Shown here in pieces: positions 21,901 to 48,900 of a stretch of 64,000 bases of DNA. This DNA comes from an uncultured Planctomycetales bacterium (GTDB lineage: Bacteria; Omnitrophota; Gorgyraeia; Gygaellales; Profunditerraquicolaceae): assembly GCA_964545575.1 (NCBI GenBank), contig CAZJFL010000001.1, positions 153,896 to 217,895 on the forward strand, in the 5' to 3' direction. The notes under the pieces were generated by a model that had not been told where the DNA came from, did no database searches, and saw only the letters and a list, made by a program, of their open reading frames with translations. Within the stretch, counting starts at the first letter, position 1. Every line of letters begins with the position of its first letter. Both the position numbers and the translations under genes were made by a program.

Positions 21901-24900
21901 CCGTAACTTACGAACTACAATGTGAACAAATACCTCATCTTTCATCTCCTGTCTTACGCGTAATCTCTTGGCTTGCCGCTCTGCGCCAAGCGCAATCAGC
22001 TTATTACGCAATTGTGCCACTAAGGCGTCTGCCCTAGCTAAAACCCGCGGCGACTCCTCTTTGTCTAACAAGCGTCTCAACCGCCCAAGATAATAATCGC
22101 AACGGGCGATTTGTAAATGTGGCGATATTGCTTCCATGCCTTCTAGGCGCCCGGGCAATTCTCGAATTAAAGTTTCCAAAGTCTGGCGAGGGCGAGAGGC
22201 GGCCCTGATCACTAAGCCCAAGGCAGTCAAATCTTCCCGCGCAGGAGCACTCTTATTATTTTGTAAAAATCCGAGTAATCTTAAACCTGCTTCAGTCGCC
22301 TCCGAAAGATGTTTTCCTTTTGCCAAAATCCCGGACTTCCTTAGTCCCATAAAATCATTGCGCACCGCTTGCGCCGAAGGCAATCCCAATTCTTCCTTTA
22401 TCTCTTGCGCGCTTAAACCGGCTAAAAAGTAAACGTATACCTGCATTCTTTTCTGTCCTTTTAACTTCTTCACCAGCGCTCTGGCTTGCTCCAGAGTAAT
22501 CACTTTTTTCCGGTATTTTGCGCCCCATTTAGTTACTCTTTTTCCCTTAATCAATTTTAATCTTCCGGCAGCAGCGGTATCAAACTGCCCTGCTTCTATT
22601 AAGCTGACTAATTCTTGGCCTTTGGCAGTTAACTGCCTTGCTGCGTCAATTAAGCGTAATTCCTGAAGTTTAGCCAGCATATTCTGGAGGCTTCCGTAAC
22701 TTATCTTTAGGCTCTGGGATAATTCCCTTCTCTCCCTGAGGCCAAAATTAATCCCCAAAAGCACTTTCATCCAGCTGGGTAAAACTTTAAGTTGTTTTCT
22801 TAATGCTTCGGGTAAAGCCATATATTTTTTCCATAGCCCCTCCAGTTGCGCCGGGACCGGCCGGATATCTTGCAGCCGGGGATCAGGGTTTTTAAATTCA
22901 AGCTCCAAGGCATACGCAGTTACCCTACCGCTCAATACTCCCGCTACCAACGCCTCTCCTTTCCCGCTCAGATGAAAAGGCGAAGGGCCTTGCTGAATAT
23001 AACCCCAGCCCGGTTCATTGCGCCTCTGGCGGTAAATAAATGCCTCGACATCATTCGGCTTCATCCCGGTCAGGCGGCTGATGCTAAAGGTAGTATTTTT
23101 TAAGCGATAAGGAAGCCTTCCGGAAACAAAAAGCGCCAAGAGAATAGTAAAGTGCTTTATTTTGACCGCATTTTTAGCGCTCAATTTCGCAAATACCTGT
23201 TGATAGCGCGCCAATTCACCACTTGTCAATATTTTTTCAAGCAGCAGGCCGCGTTTTACATTTTTCCAGTTAAATTCTTTAAAGTGCGGCAGGCCGTTCA
23301 GCTTAGCGCCCACGAGATCCTGCGGGTACGGCGTGGTACGCATGACCATAGCTGCCGCCAGAGTCAATAAGTGGTGTTCTCCGAGTGGCTGAACTAAAAA
23401 TTGCATTATTCCGCCGTGGGCGATAAATTCATAGGCGCTGCGCGCTAACTCTTGGCCTTGCGGATTATAGCAGATATAATAAACCGATAAAATTACTCCT
23501 ATAACTAGCAGCCCCAAATCAAATAATTGCACGCTGCCTCTTGCCTGTCCGGGGGTATCTTTATCCGGCGCAGGAGCGGATGTTTCTTTCTGAAATAAAA
23601 GCAGATATTTCCTAATAGTCCTTGGGGCGATATCGACGTTCGACTTTCCCGCCATTCTTATTGACCATTTTTCTCTAAATAAACCGGCTATCATAGACGG
23701 TACTAATTGGGCGGCGCTACAGCCCTGCTCACGGCATATCTCTTGAATTATATCCCTGGCCTGTAAATAGCCGTATCCCGTGCCAGGAACCAACAGCGAA
23801 AGAGGATAAACTTTACCCTTATACATTATTTCCTTTATTCCTTTTAAGAGCTTAATTACCGTGGTGTAATTAAAACCTATGGCCTCTGCGATATCGCGCA
23901 TATAAAGCGGGCAAAGCGAAACCATATTGCCATTTTCCAAATACTCCTTTTGCTTTTCAATGATTGTGTTTATCGCCAACAGTATAGATGCGCCGGGCAA
24001 TGGCTGCACAGGTAATCCATTCTGCATTTTCTCTAAAGCGCCTATTATGCCGCTATACGGAGCGCCCATCTTAAGATTTATAAAACCTAAGCGCCTGATT
24101 TGTCCTTCCTCGCTGATAAAATCTACAGAAGCTCTTTGCTTATATTTATCCCATAAGGCAAATAGTTTATTTCCTACCATCACCGCCTCTTCCTTTACAG
24201 CTGCCCGCATGCGCCAGAGATTGATCCTTCCGGTAAGTTTATGAGTAATGATTTTAGCGACCGCCTCTTCTATCTTTTTATCCAACGCTTTTGCAAAATC
24301 ACAGAAAGAACCATCAAGGTTCCAATTGTCAACCAGGGCGCCTATTTCATTAAGAACGGCTTTTAAAATATCTTCTGCCAGTTTATTGATTTCTTCATAA
24401 GCATAGAATATCTTCAAGGCGCTTACGGACCATTCAAAAGTATCAGCCATATCTTTGGCTAACCTATATTCATTCGATTCTGTAATGCGGCCCTGGTGGG
24501 CTTTGAAGTTATCGGATTTTTTTACCTCCTCAGGCGTGGGATGGTCAAACCCCTCCACATAGGTAAAGGCATTGGCAAACTTAGCCCGGAAATTATGCTC
24601 CAGCCAATCTAAATAAACCTCGGTCTTCTTCTCCTTTGCGCAAATAGCAAATTCTAATCTTGTAGCTAACTGGTGGTCGCCAAAAAGCTCTTCCCCTTTT
24701 TCATGTAGCGCAACATATCCTATAAACTCATCAGGAAACAAATCTCCGTCTACCAATAGAAAATAGCGTCCGTCAATAAAAATAGCCAGGCCCCCTAATT
24801 CTTTCCAGAAGAGCTCGAATGAAGGCTCGTCTTGATAATCCTTCTTTTTAATTACGCTATACTCAAAATCTAAACCGTGTCTCTGATAACGCCTCAGCCC

Positions 24901-27900
24901 TCCCGTCCTTCGTGCGGCCCGGCGGCAAATTTTAGGAACTACCTCTGCCAGATATTTATAAATACCTTCCAATTCCAGGCGTAGCTGCAGAATTCTTATT
25001 TCTAGCCTTTGCACCAACATCTGCCTTAGGCTCAAATCTTGACGCGTCTGCAGCACTAGCCCCAGCCCCAACCTCGTAGAATAATGCACCGGAAGAGCTG
25101 GCTCATAAGAAATATTGCGCTTAGTCGGCTTGATATCTGGCTTGATATAGCGATCCCCGAAGGCTGGAATTGGCAGAACGGTGGCTTCTTCTTTCTGCTT
25201 TTGCCAAAAGAGACCCCCTGCTTCAAGCAAATTCTTTAATTCCGCGTAGATATATTCTAATGCTGATTGGACTTCTTTTGCCTCCCAGTCAAACTCTCTA
25301 CCGGGCATGATACGCGCTGCAGCCGGTATCCCCAATATCTGCTTAATTTTCAAAAGTATATTGTGGGCTTTCCGATTAGTAAAACCATGTTCATGTAAAT
25401 CTGCCTCAAAAGCAATTATTCCTTGAAGCAGAGAGCTGAATAACTCTCTGGCTAAACGCTTTAGTTTCTCTTCTTCGCTTAACTGGACAGCGCCTTCTTT
25501 TTTATCTTCCGGTAGAGCAGGACGGTTAAGGCAAAAGCGTTTTCGCCCCACAGGCAAATTCTTTAATTCGGCAATAAGATAGCTTAAGATTCTTACTATC
25601 TGCGGCGAATCCCATTGAATAACCAACCTGGTAAAATGAACTCCAGAATTCAAGCCTAAGCCTTGATGGATTTCTTTACAGATACGCTTTATCTCAGCGG
25701 AGTTAAAACCGAGCCGTTGTAAAGCAAGCTCAAGGCCGATACGTCCGCTTTCGGGTAAGGGCTTTAATAACCTTATGGCGATACGCTTTAAGCCTGCTTC
25801 CTCTGTATCACTTACATCCTTTATGCTGCATCCGGCAGGGACATTCTGGAGGGTAAATAACCAACGGGGTAGGATTTGTTCGATAAGCGTAGCGATGGTT
25901 TCGGCGATAGGTGGGCCCTGGGCGCTGCGCAGGCAGGCCAAGAGATAATCGCGCGCTAACATTACCCCTTCTAATAGCCGCGGCAGGATCGGGCCAAAGG
26001 CGCCAAGGATACTGGTGATAGTGGTGATGATAGTGGTGATGGTTGCCGCGCTTAATCCTAAACCAAACGGCCAGAAAACGTCCCCTTTTGCCTGCTCAGG
26101 GGTATTTTTATCCGGTAAAGGTTGCTCTCTACTTTGGGCAGAGTACCCATCCGCTCCCGCTAATCGTCCCAACATAGTCATTTTCAGGCCGGTAGCAATT
26201 TTACCCAATAAACCGGGGACATAAAGATAAGCTTCGATAATACTGCTAAAGCCGGCTTTTTGCGCTAAGTGGTTTAAGAAATATAAATTCTTCAGTAAGA
26301 GGGTGATCTGAAGCGGGATAAATACGCCGTGCTTTTTTAGGCAAACCACTACTTCGGATAAACTCTGTCCGGAAGCCAAGCTCTCCAGCCTATTTTGTTG
26401 AGCAGCATTATCCATTAACTGCTTTACTTCCTGCGCAATCGCTTGCCGCTGGCTGCTTAACGGTTGATTTTCGGCTAAGCCAAAAAGGTAATCCAGGAGC
26501 TGATTGATTTTAGCGCCGGCGCCGGATAATTTTGCCAGGCCGCGCATTAATTCTCTTTCCTGCGCGCCTAATTCGAGGTAGAAGTTGCGGTCCAAAATGG
26601 CTACCCGGCCGTCAGGGGTAATGCGGAAGTTGCCTTCATGGGTATCGGAATGCACCAAGCCCAACCCATCGCCCAGCTGTTCTAAGTAATTCCGGATAAT
26701 CAAACTGACTATCTGCCGGTAATCTTCCTGCGCCACCACTCCTTGGGTTAAATCCGTGCTCTCCCCGATCTTAAGCTGCGTAAGATTGACCCCCTCGATA
26801 TATTCTTCGCGCTTGAGGTAACGGTAGTTAGGCTCAAAACTCTGCGGTACATAAATCGAGAGTCGGAAACCCTTTGGCCGCCAGCCATTATATCTTTCTC
26901 TAAAGCGGCGGTCATTTTCTAAGAAGCGGGTATCATTGATATCGCTGATTAACCAGCGCTCCAAATCCGGCAGCACGCTATCCCGCAACATAACATAGAT
27001 TTTATTTTCCGGCTCCTGCTCGATGAGTAAATCTAAAGTCTTTTTAAGCAAGGCCGCCATTTCTCTGATCCGCGCTTCGGCATTGGGGTTTAAAACTTTG
27101 AGGATATACTTTCTGCCGCTCTTTTCTTCTACCAGATAAACACTCACCAATGACCCGCCTCCGATACGCTCTACTAACCGGTCTTCGGGGCCTAAAAGCC
27201 CGGGCGCTTCCCTCTTAATGGTCTCATGGGCGGAAAGTTTAGACTGGCCGTGGATATCGTCATAAACCCGGGAAAATTCTTCCTGAACCGCTGGCGGTAT
27301 ATCTATATACTGACCTAAAACCTGCAGGCAACGCACGCCGAGGGCGCCAAAATGCTCGGCAACCCGGATAATTGCCGTCGGCCCGGAGAGTTTCTGCGTT
27401 TGTGGCGGATGGCGGCATTCCTCGGGAAGCTCGACAAAAATAGCCTGTTCTGCCGAAAGTAATTTTTCTACCTGACCAAGAGCAGAAAAAGCATAGCGGC
27501 TGGCTTTAGCCACCAGGCAGTCACCCTGAGTTTCATATTCTCTGCCATCCTTACCGGCACAGGGGCAGTGTAATCTAGCATCCCAAACCCCTTCATAGCG
27601 CACCTCTCCGTGTATATCACGCGTATTCTCTAAGAAATCCCGTACAAGCTCGGCAAAATCGTTCACCCTATTTTCCGGACGCCCAAAGATAGCCTTGACT
27701 AAAATCGGCGCTAAAAGAAAATAAAGGTCTTCTTTAGAGGAAACGCTGATAAAGGCCTTGACTATCCGCTCAACTGCCGCTTCATGCGCCTCGGATACTT
27801 CTACCTGATGCTCGATAAACTGAGCGGCCAGCTCTTCTACTTGCCCGGGATGATTAAGGATTCCGTTGGCGGGATCGGTTAAGGCCTTACGCAGCAGCAT

Positions 27901-30900
27901 CTGGCGCTCTAAAACATCGCTGTCATAGAGCCGCTCGATGAGCTCGCTGACGGATAAAAGATTGATCAGCTGGGCCTGGGTTTTATTTGCCTTTTTGACA
28001 TGTCTGTCCTCGTCATCGTCAGACATATTCCTCAATAAGTCATCAGCGGGAAATTTTTCTTCTGTCCAATGTAGGATATCTTCTGGCTTATCAAAATAAT
28101 CTAAGCCCGTCGGCTCCAGCGACTCTCTTAATATTCCGCTGTCTACCGTCCTGAGCCACCATTCCCACAAGCCAAAACGTAACAGTTCGTATTCGTCATT
28201 ACTGCTGCTTAAAGCAGCCAGCAGGAATTCCTGATTGTGCTGGAAACAGAATTTAATAAAGGCGTCGATAAATACGCCCCAGCTGGCTTTCTCTTCTGCG
28301 GCCTGGCTGCGGTATAAAGCCAGGAATTTCTCCCTTATTCTCTCTAGCTCCACCGGCGTCTGGGCAATTTTTTCTATGAATACTTCCATGCTGTTTCCTA
28401 ATCTGGCGCCTTGGCCTTCTTCCTCCTCCTGGCCAAAAACAATCTCCCAAGCAGCATTAAAATCAGCTCCTTTCAATAAAGCGCCCCGCGCATAATCTGC
28501 TACCTTTCTTTTGATATCCGGGTCAGAGAACAAGCAGGTTAAAAGCAGGAAGCGCTTAAGATTACCTTTTACCTGCGGATACATCCCGGAGATGACTTCC
28601 TCTGTCTCATCAATAAGGCTTCTTTGTTCAAGGGCATTAAGTAAATCCGGCGCAGTAATTAAAGCAAAGATATTTATGACGCATAATCTATTTATCCGCT
28701 CCAGGAATAACCAGGACTCTTCGGCTTTACCCGCTTTTAATAACTTAGCCAGGATGCGCACCGCGTCTTTCGTAAGCAAGTATTCAGCTTTGCGATAGGC
28801 TTCCTTGCGGTTACGCCACGGCGCCGTCTTTAAAACATCCTTTTTCTTAAAAACAGGTATCCGTTCCCGGATAAGCTCTAACAGAGAAATATAGCTATGG
28901 GTAAACTCTTTCCTACCGGACAGATTCCAGGAAGTAATGGAAAAATAGAGAATATCGTTAGCGCAATCTATGAGGGTTGCCGGAGGCAAATCATCCTGGG
29001 CCATTACAGCGATGAGTTCACGCAGAAAACTCTCCTCTATGACTATTTGCTCTTTTTCCTGGCCTTTCTTTACTTCCGCCATTTCATTTTTGTCTAACAC
29101 GCGCTGCATTATGTTGTCACAGAGCTTACGGTAACCCTTATCACGGATATCCTGCGGCTGGCCCTTGAATAATGCGTTAAGGTCTTGTATGCGCTGCTGG
29201 CCGGGATAACGGCTAAAATAATTTTTTAACCCTTCCAGAGCGAATTGATGCCAACGCCAGAGCTTGGTCAGCTCTGGATCATCTATCTCTTCTATCTGTT
29301 GAGCGGTTACGCTAGAACGAAACGAGAAATATACCATGTGTTCTATCTGGAATAGATTTTTGTGCCTTTTAATCGCCGGGCTATCCAGATAACTCGGGAT
29401 ACCTGACCCGCCAGAGAGAATCAGCAACAAAGCCAAGTGGGCCAAAGAATCATTGTCCGCAGCTTCTAAAATGCCGCTTTCTAAAATAATCCGGCTCCAA
29501 TCTCGTTTGTCGCTTAAAAAATAAGAAAGGTAGAGAGTCGTCTGCCATCTGTTTAAACCCTCCTGCGCTAGATAACCGCAGATATCTTCAAAAGAACTGG
29601 CGTTTGAAAAAAGGGCTAAGCTAAAGAGCAGGCGGCGTAAGTCTTCTATATCAGTTTCTTCGCCCTGAAAGGCCAAGCCTAAATCAGAAAGCCGCTCTGT
29701 CAGCCGTTCAGAAATACGGAAATATTTTGCACTGTCAAAATTACCGCTTTCAGCATCAATAAATAGTTCCGGCTCGCGGACGCAATAAGTGATAAAATCT
29801 ACAATTTTAAACCCCCATCCGTATTCCGGGCTGCTAAAAAACTGAATCCCTAACTTGCGGAAATATTCCGGATCTAATAAATTAAGGAAACCTTCCAGCT
29901 CGTTATCTCCTAAGAGATACATAAAGAACTCCTGGGCCAGGAATTTACCGTTTTGGCTGCGGAAGTCCAGTATGTTGCATAATCTCTCTTTCTCCTCGCT
30001 GTCATCACGGCCGATAATTTCTTCGCGAAAGAGCTCAACATCCATGGCAAAATAGAGAACTACCACCATAAATGCCCGGCGCTCCTGTTCCGATAAATGC
30101 GGTAGCTTCTTGGCGATTGCCTGCAATAACTTATCCACTATCAGTCTTGCCGCAGGAAAACCATTTTTATCTATTTGATAGAGCGGAAACTCAGTGCCGA
30201 TTTTATATTTTGGATAAGGGCTTAAGCCCAAGTCAGCCAGCTTGATGCCGCCCTTTGCGGATTCTTTTTTAGTCACTAAATGATCGCAAAGGTCAACCGC
30301 CACATTGAAGTAACTGGCGGCTAACGCCCTCTGCAGAATAACCAAGTCAGTGGTATTTCCTGCTAACATTCCCTGCACTAAATCTTCTATATCTCCTTCC
30401 TGTCCCTCTTGGATTTTTTTCAGGCGTTGCTTTAAAGAGTACTCTTCTTCCTTGACTTCTGTCAGTTCCTGCGCCACCTGCTTTTGCCACTGGGGGTTAA
30501 CCGGCGTCTGTAACCGCTGCATACCTTTGATATCCAAAATAAAAGCCAAAGAAAGAATATTTAACCTTCGGTCTTCCAGCCCGCCGTGTACCGCGTCCCA
30601 ATCCTGGCCCTGCTGAGCGTATTCCTTAAGATTCTGAAAGAAAGTTGCTCCGGCCAAAGGATAATATCCGGCCTCACCAAGCATGTTTACTACCGGCGCT
30701 AAGTCAGCCTCGTATTCTTTTAAACGATCTGCGCCCAGGTAAGTCGTCAACCCGGAAAGGCTTCCCTTTGCCTTCCTTAGATTATCCAGCGAGTGGCCGC
30801 TGTAGATATGTTGCAGTTCGTGGGCAAGGAAGACCGCGGCTTCGTCTTCGGTCTTTAAGTAGGTGAGTAATTTCAGGCTGGCGATAATACTGCCGTCCGG

Positions 30901-33900
30901 CAGGCCCAAGCCGATTAAATGCTGGGTCTCTTGCAGGACATAAAGATGAGGGTTAATGCCGGGCGCGGGTTTTCTTACCGCAAGCAGTTTGGCTAAAATA
31001 TCATTCAGATAACGCGGGATAAGATGGTCCTCGCTAAAAAATCCGTAACGCGCCTCTAATTCTGCCCGATATCTTTGGGTGGCCATAGTTAAAAGGCGGC
31101 TCTCTTCTGGCATAGGAACCACTGCCCTTGCTCTTAAAAAAGTCTGCTTTTTTACCGGTTTATCAGCTGCTCTTCTAAAACCAAGGAGTTCTTGCCGAAA
31201 TTCCTCATGCTCAATTCTCTCTAATTCTCTCCGAACTTCCTCTTTAACATACTTACGCAGCAACCGTCTGACTGGTCTATCCAGCGAGTTTCCGACTGTT
31301 CTCACATCCATAGCGTCGGTATCCTGGCTTAAGATTTCTTGGACTAAACGGCATCCCGCCTGCAACCTAAGAAATTCTATATCATAATTCCTCTTTCCTT
31401 CTAGGGGAGCAAAGAGATTATAAAAAGTTAGGCTTTGCGTTGCCTTAAAAATTAATGATAATAGCACAGACCCTAAGTCTAATTTCTTTTCCGGTGATGG
31501 ATATTTAAAGGCCTTTGTCATTATGTAAACACTTAATTCGTGACAGAACTTGGCAGGGAAAGTGCCGCCGCAACAGGCTATCTCTATAACCTTATCCCAG
31601 CTCTTTCCAAGAATCCCTTTTAATGGCGCGGAGTCGCCTTGGGTAAGAAAGATATTTACGGCTTCTTCCGCTCCCGGATACCTATTAATAATCACCTCTA
31701 AAAACTGTCTCTCAAATCCATAAGTCCTAAAAACCCAACTAGCAAATTTTCTGGGATCTTTATCATAAATTCTCTGCTGAAGCCGCTGTAAGCGGGGCAG
31801 GTAGGCAATTATTTCTTCCTCTATACCAGGCTCCCCAAGGCAAATATCGCCCATTATCCGTATGCTTAACTTTTCAGTCATTGCCTCATCTAATATAGAA
31901 AATAAAAATGACACACTACCTTTTATCCTTGCCATGCCTACGGAGAAATAGTTATGGACTAGCTCATGAATCAAGATTTTTAATATGACTAAAAGGCTTT
32001 TAAGTTCGTTGCGTATAAAGATTATACTGGTGCCGTTTTTGCCGTCGGAAATTGGCTTATTTATGCCCCCGGCATCAGGAAGCCTTAGTAATTCCCAAAG
32101 CCATGATGACTTCGGAATAAAGAATATCTTTTCCGAATCAAAATCAATATCGGGATATTTTTTCAGGGCCCTCTGCATAATATCTAAAGCGCGTTTCTGA
32201 GAAGAAGAGAGTTCTTTTTCTACCCCGCCCGGCATTTTTCTTAAGGCCCTGATGAATTCCCCTATTGTTGGCTCTCTCATATGGCTCTTTAATTCTGCGA
32301 TATTTGCTTCTGCCTGCCTTAATTTTTTTCTGCAAGTTTCCAAGTCGTCTTCCTCTATGCTAATTAAAGTCTCCCTTGCGATGCGTGTGCGGGGTGATTT
32401 TTTCAATTTCCTTAAGCGCTTTTTGGATTCTTCGATATCGTATATTTTGTCCTTAATATAATTATCCATCATACCTTCGATAGTGCGTATTCTGGATTTG
32501 GGCTGAACTGGCTCAAGAGCGGATGCGTCCTGTATGCTACATCCTAGAGGGGCATTCTGGAAGGTAAATAACCAACGGGGCAGGATTTTTTCGATTAAAT
32601 CGGCTAAGCGCTCCTTCCACGGCGGGCCGTGGGCGCTGCGCAGGCAGGCCAAGAGATAATCGCGCGCTAACATTACCCCTTCTAATAGCCGCGGCAGGAT
32701 CGGGCCAAAGGCGCCAAGGATACTGGTGATAGTGGTGATGATAGTGGTGATGGTTGCCGCGCTTAATCCTAAACCAAACGGCCAGAAAAGATTACCGGCC
32801 AAAGGCTCGCCTTTCTTCCCTTCGCTTTGGGGCTCTTCCTGTACGAGAGCCTGTTTCAGTTCTCTTTTATACATATCTCGATAACTGCTCAGGCGGCAAA
32901 ACAGCGCTTTATCTGCTTCATCGCCGGTAATGTTATATTTTTTGGCCATACTATGCGTAGCCCTAGACAGGCCTTTCACCAATAATGTTAGAGTAGAGGC
33001 CACCTTATCTTGATCGCGCAGAATTTGATACTTAGCGTAGAACATCTGTTGCACCATTGCCGCATTGAGCGCAGTAACCGCGGCCCTTTCAAAAAGCTCC
33101 GCTACTGTTGCATTTTCATCCGAACACTGCTGGAGAGAACGCGCCTGATGATAAAAGGCATTACTCAGCCACGCATAGGCACGGCTTAGCTCTCGATAGA
33201 GGGTGGTAATTATCTCATTATCTGCCTCCGTGGGTTCCTTGCGGCAGAGGGATAATAAGGCGGTATTTAAACGCACCAGGAGTTCACAGAAAGCAACCGC
33301 TACCGCGTAATCTTGCGGATCAGCATTATTCCAGGCCTGCTTCTCTATTGCTTCTATAATACGTAATAACTGCGTAACAACCGACTCTACAACAGGCAAA
33401 TACTGTTGCGGGTCAATTTCGTAACACTCGGGGAATAAATCAATCATCTGTTCGGCGATGCGCAGTATCTCGGGATATTCTGCGGGGGTAATTTCAGAAG
33501 CCGCCCTCCTCGCCCTGCAGACGATTGCCCAGTGCAAATCACCCAATGCCAGGCTAAGAGTATTCTGCCTGTCCATGTTGAAATAGCTAAGAGGTACGGC
33601 AGATAAGCGCAGACCCCATTCTGCCGACTTTGCGTAAAGCCTGCTTGCTTCAATATACTGGGCGCGGCTTACCGCAAAAGGCCTTTCTTCCCGGCAATGC
33701 GCAGCAAAGTGGCAATCGTTCGCCAACCGGCCTATCGCGCGGGATAAATAAGGAAGAATTCTCAGATGTTCATTAACCCGCACTATAGCCTCGCCTAACT
33801 CTATATCTAAGAGGCAGGCCTCATAGGCCAAATCAAAAGCATCCCGGCATTCCTTAAGCACTTTACGTTCCTCTGGGCTAAAGCCTCGTTTATCCCAATA

Positions 33901-36900: not shown

Positions 36901-39900
36901 TGATTCTATCTTAGCGCTGAGGTCTCTCTTGGCTCTTGGGTGTAAAATGATAGGCATTTTTATCAACTTGCTGCCGTTTTCCATATTTTCAATACTGGTA
37001 GCCGCGACAAGCTGATCTTCTGTCAGGTATATTTGAATAATAGTAAGATTATGATTACGTTCTAATAAAACGCGATTCAAACACTGTAAATAATATTGCA
37101 ATCCTCCGGTTGTATCGTAGGCGTGCGTAATCCTAAGGATAGTCCGGTTGTCAAGGCATCCGGACTCAGTAACGTCCAACGCAGCGGTAGGTATAGTAGC
37201 GGGGCCTCTAATAGCGGGAGCGGGTTCCGAGCTAATCGGAGAGGTGTCCCCTTCGGGGGCGGCGGCGGAATTCTGCGATGGGGAATATGGCGCAAACAGA
37301 TGCGGCAGGAAAAAACTTAAAAGAGCTGCGGTATAGCAGGGAACGGATAACAAAAATGATCCGCCAAGAAAGAGCAAGGCGACGGCAAAACTGATCATCA
37401 ACTTATCTATAGAGAAGGCAAATTGCAGTTTCTTGCGGAAGTTTTGACCGGGCGCGCCGGGAATATGCAAGGGGTGCCAGAGAAGGAATTGGTAAGCGGC
37501 TAAGAAAGCAAACACAAACCAGAAGGGCGGGGCAAGGCTAAATGGCAGACCAAAAGCCAAACTCAATAGCCATGCCCCACCAGCCACAAAGAGAGGAGAA
37601 ATTAATGATTCAAAGATTGCCGGCGCCCACACCCAGCCCACTTTCTCACCATATTTTCCGGCTAACCGCCTATATATCGGCTTCATCCACGGCCACTGCC
37701 CGCCTAAGTGCGTACCGTAATCAACTGCCGGCAGATTCAGGGGAACGGACGCCAAAAACGGCTGTAGAGGAACAGCTGCCTCTTGGTCCTCTGGCCTGCG
37801 GGGGAAAAATTTATCCAGCTCTTCTTGCGCCACCCGCTTGAACTCGGCGTCAAACTTAAGGCGCACTACGTATTCAACCACAAATTCCTGCAGTTGGGAA
37901 TCTTTGCGGAACATCCCCATTAATACCCGCAGGCTATAACCTGCGGGTTCTTCCGGATAATCAAAATAAAAATGCAAAAACTCGGCAATTTCGCAGCGAT
38001 AATATTCAAGATCGTCTCTCTTAGCGCCGCCGGCATCTATAGCTTGGCGCAATGATAACCCGGTCTGCTCAATATAAAAACTCACTAATGCCTCTCTGAT
38101 GCCTGCGGGAACAAACTTCCGCAGAAAGTTGATCGGTTGGTATAACACATGCCCGCGCTTGTTCAAAAAGGCATTTGTTCTGTTATTATCATCGAGCCGG
38201 TAACACATATCACGTATTCCTGTAGCCTTCATATCTACCGGGGCAAGCGGATCACTAAAAAGAGAACCGAGGTCTAAAAGATATAGGTTACCCTGCTTAT
38301 CTATCCCATATTGCTTAAGAAAAGAATCACAACAGAACACTCCCCTGGCCATCATCTGATGTTCTAATTTTATTTTCTTCGCCAGAAGATCTTTGAGCGC
38401 TCTCTCAATTGTCGCCTCATCCTCACTGCGGCATATCTCTAACATAACCTCATTAAGGGGGGCGCGCTCTACCTGAATAATAGCTTTATGGCGGCTAAAC
38501 TTATCTCCTATCGTCAGGGGCACAGCAGGCATGAGGGAAAATTCCGCTGCCAGCCCTCCTAAGCGCTGCGCTGCCAAACTATAGCCGCTTTCTGTCTGCG
38601 GAAGGAACTGCCATCTGTTGTGAGGAATTTTGACTACAAACCCCATTCCGCGGCGGATGACTTTTACTTCAAAGCCCGCGGGATCGACTTCTGCGGAGAC
38701 GAATGCAGTTGAGGCAAGAACTTGCGAAAGTTGCTCTGCGGTTATCCCGCCGACTCGCGTTTCTACCTGTTTCCCCCGGTGGCTTACATTCTTTCTTAAA
38801 ATATAGGTGCTGTGCAGAACGCCGGGTGAATGATCTTTTGGATACATGACGGGTGAAGAATCCAGGACCTCCAAACCACCTCTGAGATCGCCAAATATAG
38901 ATGGTTCTTGTTCATGCTTTTTAGATTCAAAAGAAATATATGTAATTGCGCGAAGCCTGGCTAACTTGAAAAGGGTATCTAAGTGATTATTTATTATCCA
39001 CTGGCTAAATAATTCTTCACTTTCGCAAAATAAAGCGTGCTTTTTAGCTCTCTCGCCATAGGCATTATTCACGGCATATAGATATCTAGTCAGCGGCATC
39101 ATCATCCCGTTCATCATATCTGCAGAAACCACTAAATCCGCCTGTTCTAAACCTAAATCCTTCGCCTCTTTCATCCGAACTTCTCCGTTACCGGATTCCC
39201 TGCTTATATAGTGGCGGTAGAGGCCACTTAATGCTGATAAAAAGCTATCTATTTCTGCCGGCTGTCTTAATCTTCCTGCGGATAATAATTCATGCAATTT
39301 CTTATCAGCTTCTCTGACAATTTCAGCGTTAGCTCCGGAAACATCCTGCCTGACCAAAACCAGTCTTTCCTGCAGGTCCGGACGGTGGGATAACCGCTGA
39401 TAGGCAAAACTCAGCGCCTTGGCGTCTAAATCAACTAAAATCACCTTTTTAAAAGCTGAAGCCAGATCTTCCAGCGGTACATCCAGACAGATATTTGCCC
39501 CCAACACGATAACCGTGCCCTTATTCTCGGTATACTTGATCGCCTGACGGACTTTATTCTGCACACACTGGATGGTTTGGGTAAAAGGAGAGGTTCCGTT
39601 CTGCGATAATATTTTTATTGCCTTGCTAGTATACCATTCAAAAGCTTGCCGATAAGGTTGCGGTAATTCGCCTGTTCTATCATCGACGATCGGTTCTCTA
39701 TTATCAAATATAAATACCTGGCTGAAGTTTGCCGCGAATGTTTCAAAGTCTAATCCCGGTATTGCCAAGGCTTGATGCAGTTCGCCAAGGTCAGGTGGTC
39801 GATTTTTTATGATAAATTCGACCCTGCGCTCCCAAAATTCAGAGTGCTTCCTCGCATAGCGAAGAAGTCGGGAAAACTCCCCTAGCTGCGGTAAGCACCT

Positions 39901-42900
39901 GAGCTTATCTCTTAGCGCTGCATCGTCTGCGTGCAAAACATCTATAGCGGAATTATCCGGATCAGTTGCTTCGCTCTTAATTGTGTGTGTCAGATAGGGC
40001 TGGTAACCTTGCTTTAATAATTTAGTCACTGCCTTCGTATTTAAACGGCTCTCCAGGCGCCGCCTGATCATAGGGGTAGCTTCATCAGGAAAGCCTCTCT
40101 CTATATTCTGAAGAAATTCCTGATAATCGCCAAAAATATTCTTGAAGATTAAATGCGCGTAATCTATATTTCCTTGAGTATAATGGCGCAATAGTTCATC
40201 TATAAAGCGGTCAAATTTGCTATCCCGGATAATTAACTCTCTCTCTTCGGCCAAAAAGGCAGCGAAAATATCTTTATTTTTCCCTTTGACATAGGGCCGG
40301 TGTCCGAATTCATGAAAGAGCACTTTGGCGATAGCAGCCACAGCCACCAGTTTAGCCAGATCATCCGCAACAAGATACCACTTGATAACTTTCGCCAGAA
40401 ACTGCCGGTTAAAGATTATGCTCCGGCGAAAACGGGCAGCATCAGAATTTAGATTTCTGGCCACTTTATATTCTATTGACTGATTATCCGGCCGGCTGCC
40501 TAGCTCTGTCCAATAGCAGCATAAGGCATCATATTGACGCGCTATAGCAGCATAATGATCTTCGGACTGGCTGTCAGAGATTTTCAGAAGATTTAAAAGT
40601 TTAGATGCCTCGCTAACCAGGTGGGAGATTAAATCTTTATTCTGCTGGGCATAATCTGTATCATATCTAACCTCTGTAGCCCGCTGATATCCGCCGCTTC
40701 TGATATTGCTGGGCTGCAGTAAATCGTCTGGCGCATCTCCAGAAGTCTCCGGAGGGCCTTTTCTTTCTTCCTTCCAGACGCAACCCTTAAGCAGTTTGGC
40801 CTGCTCGGTATCCAAACCAAAATCCTGCGCCAGGGCCTCGGCCAGACCAGATAAATCTTCGCGGATAAGATGGATGCGGGATTTTTGAATGCCATTAAGG
40901 AACTTGCGCGTGCCAGCCAGTTTACGGCTACGCAGGGTGCGCGTTTTGAGCGCGTCTTTTAAATATTTGAATTCTAAGATATGGGCGTATAAAGAAATGG
41001 CCCCAAAGACAGGGTTGGGAATTCTTTTGCCACGCTTTCGCGGATGGTTAATTTTCAAGGGGATAAAAGCGGCTTGATAAAATTTTGCCCACCAGAGCGC
41101 GCGGCCTTGTGGAGACCCGCGCAAAAGTTGCGCCCGCTCCACAAAATAGAGGAAAGTTTCATTTAATAAAGCCATTCTGTCTATCGGCTCATCTTGCGCC
41201 AGTTCGCGCTGAAGCAGTTCGTCGCGGTAATGGCGCATCAGGGTCTGTAAAAATGCGGAGTTCTGAGCTTTCTTCCCAATCAGCGCCAGACAATCCATCG
41301 CCTTCTGGTATCTTTTCTTCTTCATCTGTCCCAGCGCAGCGTAAATCAGCTCATAGGTTCCCTGATATTCCGGTTCATCTTTGATGATATTCAGCCGGCT
41401 GATACCCAAAAGATTAGTACGCACCATTTCTAATTTCCGGTTTTTGATGAGGTTAATCACCCACTTCGCCCGGCCGGCAATTTTCTCGTTTCTGCGCCGG
41501 GCTAAGGCGCGCAGTTCTTCTAATCTGGTATTTTGCAGCTGCGCAATAATGCTTTCGTTATCGCTCAATCTTAATTGCAGGAATTCTAAAGCCAGATACA
41601 AAAGGTCAGCGGCGGTCTTTAAGTAATGCTGGCCGGCTGCCAAAATTGCCTCGGTAGCCGCCAGTAATATGCGGGCAATGCGCTTTTCTTCGGAAAGCAC
41701 AATATCCGTCATCCCGACCAGGATCTCCAGGGCGGTTTTAATCTGGGCCTGGGCATCGCTAAACTCTCCTTCGCTCAATTGATAATTTTTAGTTTTGATA
41801 AAGCCGTGTAGCGGCGAAAGGATCCCCAGGCATTTTTTCATTCTGCGCCGGTCAGCAATCTCAAAATCAATCTGCTCGTCAATGGCGCGGAAGGCCTCCC
41901 AGAGCGTGGCAAATTTTGATTCTCCGTATTGCAGCATCGTGCGCTTGCCGCCCTTGGGGATAACATGCCTTTGCTGCACGACCTTAATAAAAGTGCGGTC
42001 GCGGCGCACGCGCACCCTGCGGCGCTGCCGCTTGGCAATTCTCTCCCGGATTAACCTCAGCCGCGCGTCGCTGATGGCATGAATAACAGTAAATAAAATC
42101 CAGCTCGCTGCTGGCTCATTGCCTTTGCGAATCAACTCCACGGCTTCTGTAATTTGACGGTTGAGCCGGCTGACTAACCGGTTATATTGCCATTTATGAA
42201 ACTTATTCCCCGGATATTTTTCGGCAAGCGCAACTAATTCTTGGGCGAGCGCCTGCCTTTTCTCTATAGCCTCCCCTTCTTGCTCCTTTTCGGCTTTGCG
42301 CCGGGCCAAAAGCACCAGCAATTCTAAAGCCTTTTCATAAAGGTCCTCAAAATAATCGCGGAACAATATTTCATCTTGGTATCTTTTTTCCTTATATCTG
42401 CGGTCAATGGGCTGCCGGCGCAAACCTCCGCTATCCGCTGCCTGCACCATCGCTACCGGCATGACCAGCCCCGCCAGCAGGAACACCCATTCAAAACTGA
42501 GTCTTGAAACTAAACCCACCAGCCACGAGCGGATGCCAAAGAGATTAGCGGCGATGGCTCCGAGGATAAGGCCGATTGCCAAACCAATGCCCCCGAATAA
42601 AGCCCACCCGGTAAATCCTACTGCCACCGGATAGGCGATTTGGCATGCCGGCAGCGGAGACACTTTCCCGCTAGCTAATTCCACAAAAGAACCGTCAACG
42701 CCCCATTGATGAAACTTAACCGACATCTGCCTTAAACCTGCTCTATCAGGCTGTATATACGCTTTAATCACTAATGTCTTCTCGGCCGCAGGTATTTTGC
42801 TCTCCGCAATACACTCCATTTGAAGATGCGAATTTGCCTCATCATACAGCACAATCCTGTCTTTTTTGCCGCCTTCCTGCTCCATTTTGGAAAATAACAT

Positions 42901-45900
42901 TTTAAAATACGGCACGAGCCGGCAAAAGGGATCGGGTATTCGTTTTAGCTCTTCATAAATATCTGACAAGTTATAGTACATAGAATAATTGCGGAACATG
43001 CCGTCAACGGTCTGGCGGGAGGCGTCTCTTATCATGTCGAAAGACGCCTGGAGACAATCTCCTTGTATGACCAGAATGTTACGGTTTAAATTTAAGCCTA
43101 AATTTTTGAACGCTATTCCGTATGGAGGCACGGGGCCTCTAAATGCCGGGTCTATTGCTTTTGCCAAAGTTGTTTTACCTACACGCCCCTTTCCTCTATT
43201 ATCTCCATCTAAAAATATCAATACCGGACAATCCGGATTTTGCGGCCTCCATTCATTTTCGATGAATCTCTTAATGCTTGCTAATGCTTGAAGAATAGGC
43301 ACCCTTACCTCCCCCGCCTTATCTATCACAGGGACTGTCCCCGCCTTATCATTTCCTTGTTCTCCTAAGGGAGCTGTCCCTGAAACTGGTTGCTCTCCGT
43401 TACTGTCTAGGGGCACTTCTTGGTTCTGGCGAGAACCGTCCCTGTTAGGTAGGCGGATTTCGATGCGCGCGCCGCCTTCTTCGACGGAGGTAAATGAGCG
43501 AACCGCAGTAATTAAAGATACTATTCCTAGCCCTCTTAAGAAGATGCGTAGGACAGAGTGACGTATCATATATTCAGCGGGTAATTCATCGAGTGCTATT
43601 ATCGATTCGGCTACCTCCAGGCCGGCTGCCTGCAAAACATCCGAAAATTTCTTAAACCATCCGTATCGTTGTTCGCATCTGCGCTCGGTGATTACCGTTA
43701 ATTTTCCCCCATCATTAACTAACGGTGCAAGCATCGCGGCAAAACTATCATCACACATATCATTATTAACTTCGCGCCAATCCGGCGCCAAGATAAAGAC
43801 CTCATCAAAGCGAAGATTACCGAATAGCCTAAATTCCTCCAGGGTCAAACGAAGTAATACCACATCCTTCAGGCGCGCCCTTACAAGCCTATAGGCTACA
43901 TCGGTAGCAGGGCATTTTTGTGGCTCAAGCCCTATAATGACCGTCCTCTCATCCTTGCAATCTGCCAATCTGCGTCTTCCAAGAAGGAAACCTCCCATAC
44001 CCGAGCCTACCTCTAACACTAATCTGACCGGCTTACCCTCTATTATTGCCAGCCGGGTTTCTTCAGTTAACTTGTTACAGGCTAGCGATGGCTCTCCTAT
44101 CTTTATTAATTCCAATAGGCCAAGTAATCTCAGTAAGTTATTCTCTCCACGTCTAAGGTCCGCTTTTAGCATCTCTAAAAGTAAGAGTATTCTCCGTATA
44201 AATTCGGTGTAGTCAGTACATTCCTTTTCGGCAATCGCGCGAAGATAAGATATAATAAAGCCAAAATCCTTATTCTGCATCAACTCTGCAATAAAGACGG
44301 CTAACTTGGCCCTCACTACTCCATTATGGGAAGGTGGAGCCTTATCCACTGGAAGGATATTACCATAACTTTCATCTAATAATTGCTTCAGCGCATGTTT
44401 GAAGAAGGTAGCTACCTCCTCTATTCTTGCGGCGCTTGCGGGATATTTTTCGTAGGCCAGGCGGGCGGATTCAAGATGGGTCTTATGGTCTATAACTTCC
44501 AATTCTTCGTGAAAAGAGGCGGTTTCAAGGCCTTCTTTGGGATTATCTTTAGTTTTTTCTATAAATGGCAGGATGGTTGCTTCGGTAAATACAACGGCAA
44601 AGTCTTCTGTACGATCCACTCCAAAAATAAGCGGCTTATCCGGATTCTGTAAGGGCGGGCCGCGGCTAAAGTTAGCCTTACAGAACTTAACCTGCTTTTC
44701 TGCTGCGGTACGGATAGCGTATCCGGCAAATTCAGGTATCTCATCAAGCGTAATCCTGCCGTCAAGCACTGCCTGCTGATAAACTGCTATCTCCTCTTGG
44801 CTGCGGTCGCCGAAGAATCCTGCGGGCTCTTTAACTAATGCTTCCTTAACTTCCTCTGTTCCACTTATGCCCTGCCTTTCTAAAGCTGCTAATTCCAGAA
44901 TAATTCTCTGTATTAACGACGGAGTTTCCTTTAAGGCAAGTTGATATTGCTCTATGGCCTCGGCAACTTTCTCTTCGGTCATCAACCACCAGGCCTGGGC
45001 TAAAGATTCGCGAGCTTCCATGCTCACAGAAGGCTTAAGCGCAGGCTCATTCTTGATATCCCGTACCAGTCCCCAGAATAACCTCATCGGCGAAATAAAT
45101 TCATAATCATCTCCCGGGCCAAAGAAGAAACCCACGCCCTCTCTGCCCCCTATTCTTGCGGCGAATTCCCGCGCCTGCGCAAACATCCCAAACATTATCT
45201 GATGCAATTTTTCCAACAGTTCCCGCTGTGACGCAGGAAGCGGACCCTGTAAACTCTTTACAGCTTCCATTTCTTGCTTTAAGGTAACTTTTTCATCTCT
45301 CCTAATAGCAATAAAACCCGCCAGGAATTTACCTTCGGCAGAATCCCTGCTAATCCCTAAGGCATTCCAGACTGCGGCGTCAATAACCTTTTCATTTCTT
45401 AACTTCTCGCCCTGAATATTGAAAGTATCCGGATTTGACGCTCCCTTATAGCATCTGACATATAACTCATAGTAGACCCGGGGAGTAAAAGTCTTGCCCC
45501 AAACTGCTTCTTCCGGGTGCTCTAAAATATAGGCTGCCTCCGCAGAAAGGCCTTTTTTGTGCGAGGCGACCAGCTTTGCTTTTTCCTGCGCCAGCCAGGC
45601 GCAATCAAGCTGCGCCAGGTTTAATCCGGCCAGATTAGAATCGATTAACTCCTGGGCCGATTTATATTCTTCAGATTTTTCTATCTTTTCCCTGTACTGA
45701 CGATATTTTCTGTTGTGCGCTTTTAGAAGATCTACTGATTCCTCTTCGTACGTAAAGCAGATAAAGATATCATCAAATTTCACCTCCCAGCTTGCTTTCA
45801 TCCATTCCAGATAGGCCTGCAGGTTTCCTTCTTTGGCGCAAACCGCCAACTCCAGCAGGGTAGCCAGGTAATGGCTATCAAATAACGCCTCTCCTCTTTC

Positions 45901-48900
45901 GTGGACCGCTATATATTCTACGATTTGCTTAGGGAAAAATTTACTGTCAACCATAAGATAATAACGCCCGTTACTTAAAAACCCTCCGGCATGTTTCTTC
46001 TTCCACCAATATTCTATAAATAATGTTTCGCCGGCATAATCTTTTTTTATCGGCGCGGCATAGTCAAAGGATAAGCCGTGTTTAGCGTAATGCCTGATCC
46101 CTCCCGGCCGTTTTGCCACCCTCTCCCAGATCCGCGGGACTATTATTTTTGCCAAAGTATTCTCAGTTTCAATGTCTTCTATTTCTGCGTATAAATCGGA
46201 TAGATCGTCAAAAACTTCTTCGCCTTCCCCTTCCTCCGATGGCGCTTCGCCGATTGGCCCTCGAGCTTTCACTACTTCAGTAGGGACAGCGGAGGCATGG
46301 GTGACCCTTTGTTCCTCAGGGTAAACGGGCGAAGAGCCGCTGCCTTTACCCTGCCGCACCATCATCACCGCCACAGCGCCCAGCACAATCAGCCCCAGCA
46401 CCGGCAATACCCAGGGTGCAAGATGCAACGCCTTAGCCAGCGCCCCTAATATTACCGAAATCCTAAAAGGCGCAAAGGCAGGAAGCGTTGTTTTCGGCGC
46501 AGGGGCGGCAGGCTGCTGGCTAACAGAGAGCAAAGAAGAAACAGTTGGATCTATCTCCTGCAGGGGAATAACCTTAATATCTGTCCGGCCGTAGTTCTGA
46601 AGCAATACCGAAACTATGCCAATATATTTTTTATAGGTTGCGACAATTTCAATGGGCAATCTCTCTACTCTGTCCTCAAATACATGGTCTCTATGCAATA
46701 TGCCTTCTTTTATAGCCCAGTTGTCATAATCAGCCACGGGCTGGTCTTCTACCGAGAGTCCGGCTACAGAACCGATAATAATAACCGGTATCCTGGAAAG
46801 CTTATTAATCTCAGCTTGCGCATCCTCTGATAAATCAGCAAAATACCTCTGTATTTCAAGAAATCTGTCTAGCGCATTATTCACAGTTTCATCTGTAAGG
46901 TCACGCATAAAGGCCTTTGTCCAGCTCCTGACTTTTTCGTCAATATTGTCCGGAGCAATTCTATAACAAAACTGGAAGACCGTATCCCTTTCTGCGCTAC
47001 ATTCCGAAGCGTATTGCAGCGCCAAAACGGCATAATTATGTTTTTTATTTTTCATCGCCACTGATAAATTTATGGTCGATACCATATTTTCGGTTGTACC
47101 CGTAATAGCAAATCTTTCTCCCGAGAAAACTAAAAGTCCCCGCTTTAGAATCTCCTCTATTGATAGTAACGCTCCTGCTGTGGTTTCAAGTGCCCTCTTG
47201 AGAGCAAATACGTTAGTGCCATGGGCGTGATATTCTCTTGCGCTACGGCTGGCGACACCTTTACCTTGCTTTGCTATCCACAGCGCCGGAAACGGCAGGC
47301 CGAACGGCAATAACTCAAGAACTCGCGAACCCAATAACTCGCGAACTAACGCCGGCGGGCCGGTAGTAAAATGGCTAGCTAGCTGCTGCAGAAAATGCAG
47401 GTGAGAAACGGCAAATAAGGCTGTGCTGCTGATCAGCCCGATAACTAAAATTACGCCCAGTAATCCGATCATGGCAAAACCGCCAGGCGTAAAGCCCTCT
47501 TTGGGCTGGGGAGGGTCGGGGGAATCTTCGTCCTCGTCCTCCGGCACCACCTCAAAGCCGATGTTAATCTGATTTTGCTCTGTGGTATCAACTATCAAAT
47601 ATAATCTCATTCTTTGTTGCCCTAAGTAAGGCTTAGCTTCTTCAAGTATTTCCCAGCGAGCCCCAGGTAATGATTCCTCAAGCAGTATCCCTAGTTCAAC
47701 TAGCTGCTGCAGCACATCCTCAAGAGAATCTTCGTCTGAGAAAATACCCGCGAATTGCCAGAAACCGTTTGCGATACCTAATAATCTTTCCGTATATGCG
47801 CTTTTAGATATCGGCATTTGCGATATCGCAACTAAAACTTGCACCAATTCGGTTTTACAATATGCGTAATAGTCAAATCTCCGCTCACAGGCAAGCCGAT
47901 GGGCGACGTCCGGAGGAAGGCCTTGTCTTAAAGAGACCCATTCTGAGAATTCATGAGCGGCAACTTCTCTGCGCAATACCTGTGGAGTATCCTGATCAAA
48001 CAAGAGCCAGTGGATAGTAAAGATAAACTCCCCGTCTTCTTTTCTCATCTGAAATAAATCTGTATCTTTTTCGCCGACGATGACGGCCTTTACTCTTTCT
48101 CCTAATATCCCGCTATCAGGGGAATCATCCGACTCAGCGGGATAAAAATCATCCAGCAGCTCCTTAACCCAAGCGGGCAGGAATATTTCATCCTCGATAT
48201 CGAGCCCTTTTACTTTCTCCGTAGGCATTTTAAAAGTACCGCTTCCTTTTTCTTTAGTTAAAATAACTCTGGGCTTATCTATCTGCTTCAGGGATTTCTC
48301 GGCATAGGCGCGCGGCCTAGACATTTCTTTCTTATCTCTGGCTTCTTGGATAATCGCCGATTCTAATTGCTCAAGTGTCATTCCCGGCTTAATCAGGCCG
48401 CGAATCATCCTCGAGTCTGCGGTTGGTAACCTCTCTTTTTTTATCCTCGGCTTCATCCAGTAGTACATTGCTTCGGCGATACTCTTCTCTAAACGCTCAA
48501 TTAAACTCCGGAACACCCCCACCACTGCTTCTTCTATCTCTACTTTTTGTAATTCTGTCATGAAGGACCGTGAAAGCTTGGAGAAATCCACCACCTCGTC
48601 TACCCGTTGATAATTTTCAACTATATAATAAGTGATAATCTCCAACCAGATCCTTTCCTTTACTTCCCGAGCCCTCCCTCCTTCTTCCAGCGCATTCTTC
48701 AGAACCCAGGAATCATCTTTAGGGTAGAACCCTGCCTCAGTCAGCGCCGCTTTAGCCCGCTGCAGAAACCGCTCTGCAGCTATTCTCAGCAGGACGCGCC
48801 ACCCCTGCTCATCCCCGCCCTGCATTGCTTCTTTGACTTCGTCCAGAGAAACTTCCGCTAACGTCCGGAGCCTCTGCTGAATCGTAGCGTATTCTTTTAC

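Follow-up and report, generated by a model that had tools for sequence, protein, structure and literature searches.

A giant open reading frame (ORF) that fills the whole 64-kb stretch of DNA analyzed here (the window) carries two copies of an uncharacterized α/β domain of ~190 amino acids, which we call the HExGE domain, and sequence comparison confirms the copies as true ancient paralogs. The domain may be built around a hydrolase center with one metal ion, probably zinc, on the zincin plan, a reading that we advance tentatively. The ORF, the two copies, and their core motifs lie at the following window positions.

1..64000, minus strand: single stop-free ORF (frame scan, Pfam, and TM-like segment count).
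45607..46173, minus strand: copy A of the HExGE domain, amino acids 5943–6131, BLAST core 45637–46143 (BLASTP, HMM/phmmer).
45850..45903, minus strand: core motif of copy A, H-E-R-G-E-ALFDS-H-YL-A-T-L-L-E, amino acids 6033–6050 (alignment and conservation).
24409..24972, minus strand: copy B of the HExGE domain, amino acids 13010–13197, BLAST core 24439–24942 (BLASTP, HMM/phmmer).
24652..24705, minus strand: core motif of copy B, H-E-K-G-E-ELFGD-H-QL-A-T-R-L-E, amino acids 13099–13116 (alignment and conservation).

The ORF is stop-free over at least 21,333 codons and runs off both window ends; the other five reading frames of the window contain 689–1,531 stops. Amino acid i corresponds to window positions 63997-3(i-1) to 63999-3(i-1). 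Enzyme domains (PGK, GT4, ARMT1-like, M48, ABC1, HAD, DnaJ, and GNAT) are tiled along the ORF, which also has HEAT/TPR repeats, ~36 TM-like segments, and more than 12 distinct Pfam families. It resembles the giant proteins of Omnitrophota, described as Archaeovorins (West-Roberts et al. 2023) and as a “multi-enzyme metabolic cluster” class (2026 preprint), in being a single ORF of more than 10,000 amino acids (here more than 21,000 codons) with many unrelated Pfam domains, many unrelated enzyme domains among them, HEAT/TPR repeats, and TM helices. Published descriptions report diverged internal duplications of domains as the norm in such proteins. Neither West-Roberts et al. 2023 nor the 2026 preprint mentions the HExGE domain or any sigma-type module, and the word “sigma” occurs in neither. 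The original prediction was silent on the minus strand, on the window-filling ORF, and on the ~500-amino acid module ending in a sigma-54-type helix-turn-helix (HTH) that contains copy B.

Both peptides that had been called homologous, at ~24.7 kb and ~45.9 kb, are present, with HEKGEELF beginning at window position 24705 and HERGEALF at 45903 in the same minus-strand frame. BLASTP with 300-amino acid flanks returned a single alignment of residues 5953–6121 to residues 13020–13187, with 71/174 positions identical (41%) and an E value of 6e-37, which rules out chance or low-complexity similarity. The similarity extends well past ~40 residues, and the part common to the two copies measures ~175–190 amino acids, less than the several hundred residues originally proposed for the duplicated unit. 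Scanning the whole ORF with HMM and phmmer gave exactly two copies, with envelopes 5943–6131 and 13010–13197, ~21 kb apart in one gene. No third copy was found by these searches, as a weak match at residue ~6276 reached only E = 2.3; two copies in 21,333 amino acids do not amount to the amplification that had been suggested. The duplication is old, as blastn detected no similarity left between copies A and B at the nucleotide level. All residues conserved across the family are retained in both copies.

The HExGE domain defines a family of its own. An exhaustive profile search recovered relatives in 119 representative clusters, of which 50 scored E < 1e-10, unlike a word-indexed homolog search, which was nearly empty. 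The relatives comprise ~360-amino acid proteins of Patescibacteria, proteins of 500–1,600 amino acids without a Pfam match, and pieces of giant proteins of the Omnitrophota type; one of them, P0026, comes from a MAG annotated as Candidatus Omnitrophica. The family spans Patescibacteria, where the domain stands alone, giant proteins of the Omnitrophota type, and other uncultured bacteria. The gene context of standalone homologs, at four Patescibacteria loci and one JGI contig, showed nothing conserved. The domain has no match in Pfam, in NCBIfam, or, by single-sequence and profile searches, among PDB sequences, and weak Pfam matches pooled over 31 family members were empty even at E ≤ 10. This agrees with the original view that the motif fits no nameable family.

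In domain numbering, the core residues are H91, E92, G94, E95, H101, A104, and E108, and they occur in 117, 118, 110, 116, 116, 115, and 118 of 121 sequences, respectively. Every one of these except G94 is thus kept in 95–98% of sequences, and the His/Glu cluster, kept in both window copies, is the top conserved feature among the 119 representative clusters. The spacing of the third His is +10 or +11 in 87 members, and the conserved Glu at +17 (E108) is present in 118/121. The +4 position is Glu in 116/121 and is His only in P0004, P0005, and one degenerate member. P0004 (HERGH) and P0005 (HEFGH) therefore have a canonical HExxH, and both retain H101 and E108. In each of three degenerate members, several core residues have been lost together, as would be expected for one cooperative site. 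From the near-invariant motif, the HExxH of two members, and the coupled loss in degenerate members, we infer that the His/Glu cluster forms one metal site, for which a variant of a zincin-like hydrolase with HExxE and a His at +10/+11 would be the likeliest identity.

The AlphaFold 2 model of the domain is confident (pLDDT 85.7, pTM 0.85). It shows an N-terminal helix, β strands, the HExGE helix (residues 82–98), and a second helix (residues 101–114) that bears H101, A104, and E108; the HExGE helix stops at +7, with a two-residue turn before the next helix. In this model, H91-x3-E95 and H101-x6-E108 would each lie on the same helix face, a clustering deduced from helix periodicity alone. Foldseek searches of the model against PDB and BFVD returned nothing significant and no zincin, with best E values of 0.65 and 0.38 and TM scores of at most 0.31.

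The paired residues could also be read as a carboxylate (Fe/Mn) di-metal or hemerythrin-like site, where HxxxE and Hx6E would bind two ions that serve redox or small-molecule sensing or oxidative chemistry. The two pairs sit on consecutive helices with same-face spacing, and di-iron sites of the hemerythrin/RIC type typically contain HxxxE pairs. However, the ligands would come from only two helices, Foldseek against PDB gave no four-helix-bundle match, and there was no Pfam Hemerythrin or ferritin-like match, even a weak one. The natural change of E95 to His, which makes HExxH, points instead to a mononuclear site of the zincin type, and we regard two bound ions as quite improbable.

For the single-metal, zincin-like site, we propose H91, E95, and H101 as ligands: E95 would replace the second histidine of the HExxH motif, and H101 would have the +10/+11 spacing known from metzincin or WLM-type motifs. 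The general base would be E92; residues E108, Y121, and K132 may serve in the second shell or at the substrate. Like zincins, the domain has a His-Glu pair on a helix, a metal-capable residue at +4, a His at +10/+11 past a helix break (the third ligand of CLCA1 is at +11), and, in two family members, a true HExxH. The small Gly at +3 is shared with the HExGH of several zincin families. The modeled order of a backing helix, β strands, the active-site helix, and a following helix also resembles the description of zincins as a backing helix, sheet, active-site helix, and third helix. The domain also differs from zincins. Zincins have HExxH (HExxHxxGxxH in metzincins, HExxHx5H in WLM/DUF45-type minimal zincins), whereas Glu prevails at +4 here and both window copies have HExxE; neither a Met-turn nor any further family signature was recognized; and the third His opens a helix that also bears the invariant Glu at +17. 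Pfam clan-MA families gave no match to 31 members at E ≤ 10. No relationship emerged to the ORF’s own M48-like zincin, whose HExxH segment aligned to the domain with an hhalign probability of only 0.1%. A true HExxE zincin did not turn up in the literature: the mentions of “HEXXE” that we found concern HExxH enzymes. Metal binding and hydrolysis by the domain are suggested by its sequence, and the original proposal of a novel metal-binding or hydrolase domain fits the unnamed family and its conserved His/Glu cluster, with amplification set aside.

The two copies have different surroundings, and the features that flank them are as follows.

46357..46413, minus strand: TM-like hydrophobic segment WVLPVLGLIVLGAVAVMMV, amino acids 5863–5881, followed by an acidic linker into copy A (TM prediction).
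24973..25071, minus strand: Leu/Gln-rich leader LGLGLVLQTRQDLSLRQMLVQRLEIRILQLRLE, amino acids 12977–13009, directly upstream of copy B (sequence comparison).
23578..24408, minus strand: conserved region downstream of copy B, amino acids 13198–13474 (profile comparison).
23842..23982, minus strand: sigma-54-type HTH, amino acids 13340–13386 (Pfam, NCBIfam, PDB profile, and hhalign).
23470..23526, minus strand: TM-like segment, amino acids 13492–13510, that closes the copy-B module (TM prediction).

Copy A is a bare domain without leader, helical extension, or HTH, and would be a stripped-down derivative set after a TM helix. Copy B would have kept the full family module of leader, domain, helical extension, and sigma-54-type HTH, ~500 amino acids that end in the HTH. 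In almost every family member, a similar Leu/Gln-rich leader stands before the domain. The region downstream of copy B consists, in order, of a ~100-amino acid helical extension, common to much of the family, a sigma-54-type ELH-HTH, and an RpoN-box-like “DIAPRTIRKY,” which aligns collinearly but below threshold to ARRTVAKYR. By sequence comparison, this downstream segment is homologous to the sigma-54 ELH-HTH. The HTH gives local matches to Pfam Sigma54_DBD (E = 1.1e-4) and NCBIfam TIGR02395 (E = 2.4e-5), a PDB profile match at E = 8e-6 on ~20 sigma-54 sequences, and 48% identity to a bona fide RpoN in L006. A second metagenome scan returned only a genuine rpoN. The C-terminal part of the module aligns to real RpoN with an hhalign probability of 96% and E = 2.8e-9.

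Like sigma-54 (RpoN), then, the copy-B module has an ELH-HTH, the segment that binds the -12 element, and then an RpoN-box-like motif. Unlike sigma-54, it has no core-binding domain, scores far under the family cutoffs (23.6 bits against 277 for TIGR02395), and sits between TM-like helices inside a polytopic giant protein. Could the module be a complete, fast-evolving embedded RpoN, with the HExGE domain as a very divergent region II/core-binding domain? The collinear order of Leu/Gln-rich leader, domain, ELH-HTH, and RpoN-box-like “APRTIRKY” is that of sigma-54, and the best hhalign placement of the leader on real RpoN is at residues 5–44, in region I. That placement has a probability of only 4.7% and the leader profile finds no sigma-54 in PDB, so identity of the leader with region I is not supported; Sigma54_AID reached only E = 1.2, in P0036. 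No sigma-54 region resembles the HExGE domain itself: the domain profile against real RpoN gave an hhalign probability of 0.2%, on which we reject it as a core-binding domain, no member has a Sigma54_CBD match, and Foldseek returned no sigma-54 chains. A divergent RpoN is therefore exceedingly improbable.

The sigma-54-type ELH-HTH lies ~145 amino acids downstream of the domain in copy B, in P0001–P0005, and partly in P0026, and P0007 has an ECF-type Sigma70_r2 and r4_2 module ~95 amino acids upstream of its domain. These neighbors would suit a non-catalytic metal-binding domain that regulates adjacent sigma-type modules, analogous to an anti-sigma factor or sensor, with the His/Glu site, through its metal or ligand state, and the amphipathic leader together gating the DNA-binding segment. 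Many anti-sigma domains are helical and bind zinc. However, most members have no detectable sigma/HTH module, including the ~360-amino acid Patescibacteria proteins, the 500–1,600-amino acid classes (zero Pfam matches), and copy A. Unlike ZAS domains, which are ~90-amino acid helical units with HxxxCxxC, the HExGE domain lacks that signature and has a motif without a Cys pair, ~190 amino acids, and β strands. Furthermore, an invariant Glu right after the first His typifies a catalytic base rather than a structural site. Purely regulatory function is thus conceivable but rather doubtful. If the domain is instead a zincin-like hydrolase, it may act on its own host polypeptide or on the neighboring sigma-type module, which it might, for instance, release or control.

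Giant bacterial genes consist largely of “dark” sequence, and whether their products work as one polypeptide or in cleaved pieces is, to our knowledge, an unanswered question. The HExGE domain, conserved and unannotated, with what is probably a metal or catalytic site, would give a concrete handle on it, and its residues H91, E92, E95, H101, and E108 are open to mutation. Two copies in one gene and a neighboring sigma-54-type DNA-binding segment make the HExGE domain a candidate processing or regulatory enzyme. If it is an ordinary structural domain, the finding is one more diverged internal duplication of the kind already reported as the rule in such proteins. At its most ambitious, and this we think unlikely, it would be a new zincin-like metallohydrolase family with Glu for the second His; the complete form, fused to a sigma-54-type DNA-binding segment, would be a self-contained, possibly self-processing, membrane-tethered transcription module in a giant polyprotein, and the standalone form a conserved, unrecognized enzyme of Patescibacteria. 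Since the domain is the core of a ~360-amino acid protein in several Patescibacteria lineages, a function assigned to it would annotate proteins of the candidate phyla radiation as well.

Six-frame translation revealed a minus-strand frame that is open over the entire window (at least 21,333 codons) and runs off both ends; the remaining five frames contain 689–1,531 stops each, and an ORF listing of the window returned none longer than 201 aa outside the main frame. Pfam matches make this ORF a mosaic of phosphoglycerate kinase (PGK), HEAT and TPR repeats, a GT4 glycosyltransferase, ARMT1-like, M48-like HExxH peptidase, ABC1 kinase-like, and winged-helix segments, two HAD hydrolases, DnaJ, and several GNATs. 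A hydropathy scan marked ~36 TM-like segments across the ORF, and the cytosolic-type enzymes (PGK, HAD, GNAT, DnaJ, ABC1, GT4, and ARMT1-like) are interspersed with them. The mosaic fits published descriptions of Omnitrophota giant proteins, both that of the Archaeovorins, which lists HEAT, TPR, GT, and glycolytic-enzyme domains, and that of the "multi-enzyme metabolic cluster" class. Such a mix is typical of Omnitrophota-type giant genes. Among the long proteins of that published collection, 65% repeat one or more of their Pfam domains. Because those repeats are old and diverged, an internal duplication with diverged copies is nothing unusual in such a gene.

The ORF holds two copies of an unannotated domain, which we call the HExGE domain after its conserved motif (six-frame translation):

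window 45903 (aa 6033), minus strand: HERGEALF, motif of copy A
window 24705 (aa 13099), minus strand: HEKGEELF, motif of copy B

We compared the copies by all-against-all BLAST of 400-aa chunks of the ORF and directly with 300-aa flanks. Both peptides quoted in the original prediction are present in one frame and are homologous far beyond chance, with 71 of 174 positions identical in a single alignment (aa 5953–6121 versus 13020–13187; BLAST E 6e-37). This self-comparison delimits the duplicated unit to the ~175–190 aa common to both copies, well past ~40 residues but short of the several hundred proposed. The description "amplified" also failed, as a profile of the pair and a phmmer search with copy A found two places only (envelopes aa 5943–6131 and 13010–13197) and no array. 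Blastn detected no DNA similarity between the copies. Copy B is the best match of copy A; copy B itself scores 147 bits with relative P0001, 133 bits with relative P0002, and 131 bits with copy A. Domains of proteins from other samples are as near to copy B as copy A is, or nearer. Judged from these comparisons, the duplication is old.

Other repeats were observed in the ORF. The three copies of a ~85–110-aa element share 70–83% aa identity and 78% DNA identity, and this triple repeat is therefore far younger than the HExGE duplication:

window 32512–32841 (aa 10387–10496), minus strand: triple-repeat copy 1
window 25801–26130 (aa 12624–12733), minus strand: triple-repeat copy 2
window 14674–14919 (aa 16361–16442), minus strand: triple-repeat copy 3

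Its core, FGLGLSAATITTIITTITSILGAFGPILPRLLEGVMLARDYLLACLRSAQG, combines a hydrophobic stretch rich in Thr and Ile with a conserved helix after it. About 280 aa separate one copy from the leader (the segment preceding the domain) of copy B, which is downstream. Between that element and the leader, ~87 aa are locally duplicated in tandem (aa 12729–12815 versus 12838–12924, window approx. 25200–25560; 33% identity, E 1e-5). Near opposite window ends lie the two copies of a second internal duplication that has diverged; they carry a GNAT-like R-x-K-G-x-G motif and are 24% identical over 232 aa (E 1e-20):

window 59590–60246 (aa 1252–1470): one copy of the second duplication
window 7180–7845 (aa 18719–18940): the other copy

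The same ORF also carries a canonical zincin segment, Peptidase_M48 (Pfam E 8e-6; window 30766–30945, aa 11019–11078; FLAHELQHIYSGH), to which the HExGE domain is unrelated by hhalign.

Conservation was counted over 121 sequences aligned to the family profile. In domain numbering, H91 is retained in 117, E92 in 118, G94 in 110, E95 in 116, H101 in 116, A104 in 115, L107 in 110, and E108 in 118; F36, Y121, and K132 are each >90% conserved. Copies A and B keep every conserved residue. In P0004 (HERGH) and P0005 (HEFGH), E95 (+4) is replaced by His, giving a textbook HExxH with H101 and E108 kept. P0088, P0111, and P0026 are degenerate, each having lost several site residues jointly, and in 87 members the spacing between the first and the third His is +10 or +11. 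The E/H exchange, coupled loss, and position of the third His argue that these residues form one functional site.

An AlphaFold2 model using a 31-sequence alignment was confident (pLDDT 85.7, pTM 0.85). It consists of helix 2–21, a beta hairpin (26–39), short helices, two short strands (65–72), helix 82–98 with HExGE, a 2-residue break, helix 101–114 with H101, A104, and E108, and five more helices. H91 and E95 would share one helix face, as would H101 and E108, and helix periodicity would place H91 opposite E108 in an antiparallel hairpin. The predicted order of elements is that of zincins. The helix carrying HExGE stops at +7 and the third His follows at +10/+11, which is where metzincin or WLM-type sites have their third ligand. 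The published description of CLCA1 restates this layout, with Asp167 at +11.

Pfam and NCBIfam gave no match to either copy with 100-aa flanks, nor did a PDB sequence search with a single copy or a 31-sequence profile. When weak Pfam matches were pooled over 31 members at E ≤ 10, no family recurred. A word-indexed protein search is nearly blind to the family; by exhaustive HMMER search, 119 proteins were recovered from 1.84 billion representatives, 50 of them at E < 1e-10, in four groups:

group 1: ~350–375-aa proteins, domain at ~40–235; Portnoybacteria, Saccharibacteria, Andersenbacteria, and other Patescibacteria genomes
group 2: ~500-aa proteins
group 3: 1,000–1,600-aa proteins with zero Pfam domains; one cluster labelled Deltaproteobacteria bacterium RIFCSP
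group 4: multi-kilo-residue fragments, P0001 (3,765 aa), P0007 (4,610 aa), and P0047 (2,762 aa)

The group 4 fragments look like giant-protein pieces, and one relative is annotated Candidatus Omnitrophica. The Leu/Gln-rich leader (G-L-S-L-x-L-x-Q-x-L-x-L-R-Q...) is immediately N-terminal to the domain in nearly all members, and many have a ~100-aa helical extension C-terminal to it. Several Patescibacteria lineages (Portnoybacteria, Saccharibacteria, and Andersenbacteria) encode standalone proteins in which the leader and the HExGE domain are followed by a C-terminal helical region:

L002, 7849–8919: standalone HExGE protein, ~360 aa
L003, 1388–2464: standalone HExGE protein, ~360 aa
L004, 7941–9080: standalone HExGE protein, ~360 aa
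L005, 7980–9095: standalone HExGE protein, ~360 aa

No conserved gene neighbourhood was found around these four. The standalone Patescibacteria proteins have an extra conserved F-S-H-C motif, which the window copies lack.

P0001, P0004, P0002, P0005, and P0003 all conserve the ~340 aa that follow copy B (E 5e-41 to 4e-7); the region after copy A gave no match. Pfam Sigma54_DBD matches aa 13340–13386 (E 1.1e-4, 22.4 bits versus a cutoff of 22.8), with weak matches at the same relative position in P0004 and P0005. A profile of six downstream regions matches ~20 distinct PDB sigma-54 sequences over the DNA-binding ELH-HTH (best E 8e-6) and aligns collinearly, sub-threshold, with the RpoN box. Local matches also come from NCBIfam TIGR02395 and four further sigma-54 models (E 2.4e-5), far under equivalog cutoffs. 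A bona fide rpoN from a metagenome scan (L006) has an HTH 48% identical to that of the copy-B module, and hhalign of this module with L006 gave 96% probability (E 2.8e-9). These matches show a sigma-54-type HTH fused to copy B. The HExGE domain itself has no similarity to RpoN (hhalign probability 0.2%), and a resemblance of the leader to sigma-54 region I is unproven. The hydropathy scan also placed TM-like helices near both copies:

aa 13492–13510: TM-like helix closing the copy-B module
aa 5863–5881: TM-like helix just before copy A

In P0007, a JGI protein, an ECF-type sigma-70 pair lies ~95 aa upstream of the HExGE domain. Its Sigma70_r2 and Sigma70_r4_2 span residues 2962–3100 and the HExGE domain 3195–3394; an additional Sigma70_r4 was observed at 1944–1996. 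From the contexts of copy B and P0007, the HExGE domain recurs beside sigma-type DNA-binding modules, which appear to be recurrent cargo of these giant proteins. Most family members have no detectable sigma-type module.

The ORF thus encodes two paralogous HExGE domains with a conserved His/Glu constellation marked by E/H exchange and coupled loss. This constellation may bind metal and catalyze hydrolysis. Because sigma-type neighbors recur inside a membrane-woven polyprotein, plausible substrates would be the giant polypeptide itself or the adjacent sigma-type module, and cleavage would release or control a tethered DNA-binding unit. The proposal of a novel metal-binding or hydrolase domain survives in part, shorn of amplification and of the longer unit: the HExGE domain is novel and probably metal-binding, and it represents an undescribed family that is best read as a variant of the zincin theme. 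Duplication is routine for such giant genes. What is new, and can be put to the test, is the HExGE domain, with its putative function, together with its sigma-54 linkage; an unexpected sigma-54-type fusion accompanies this undescribed family.
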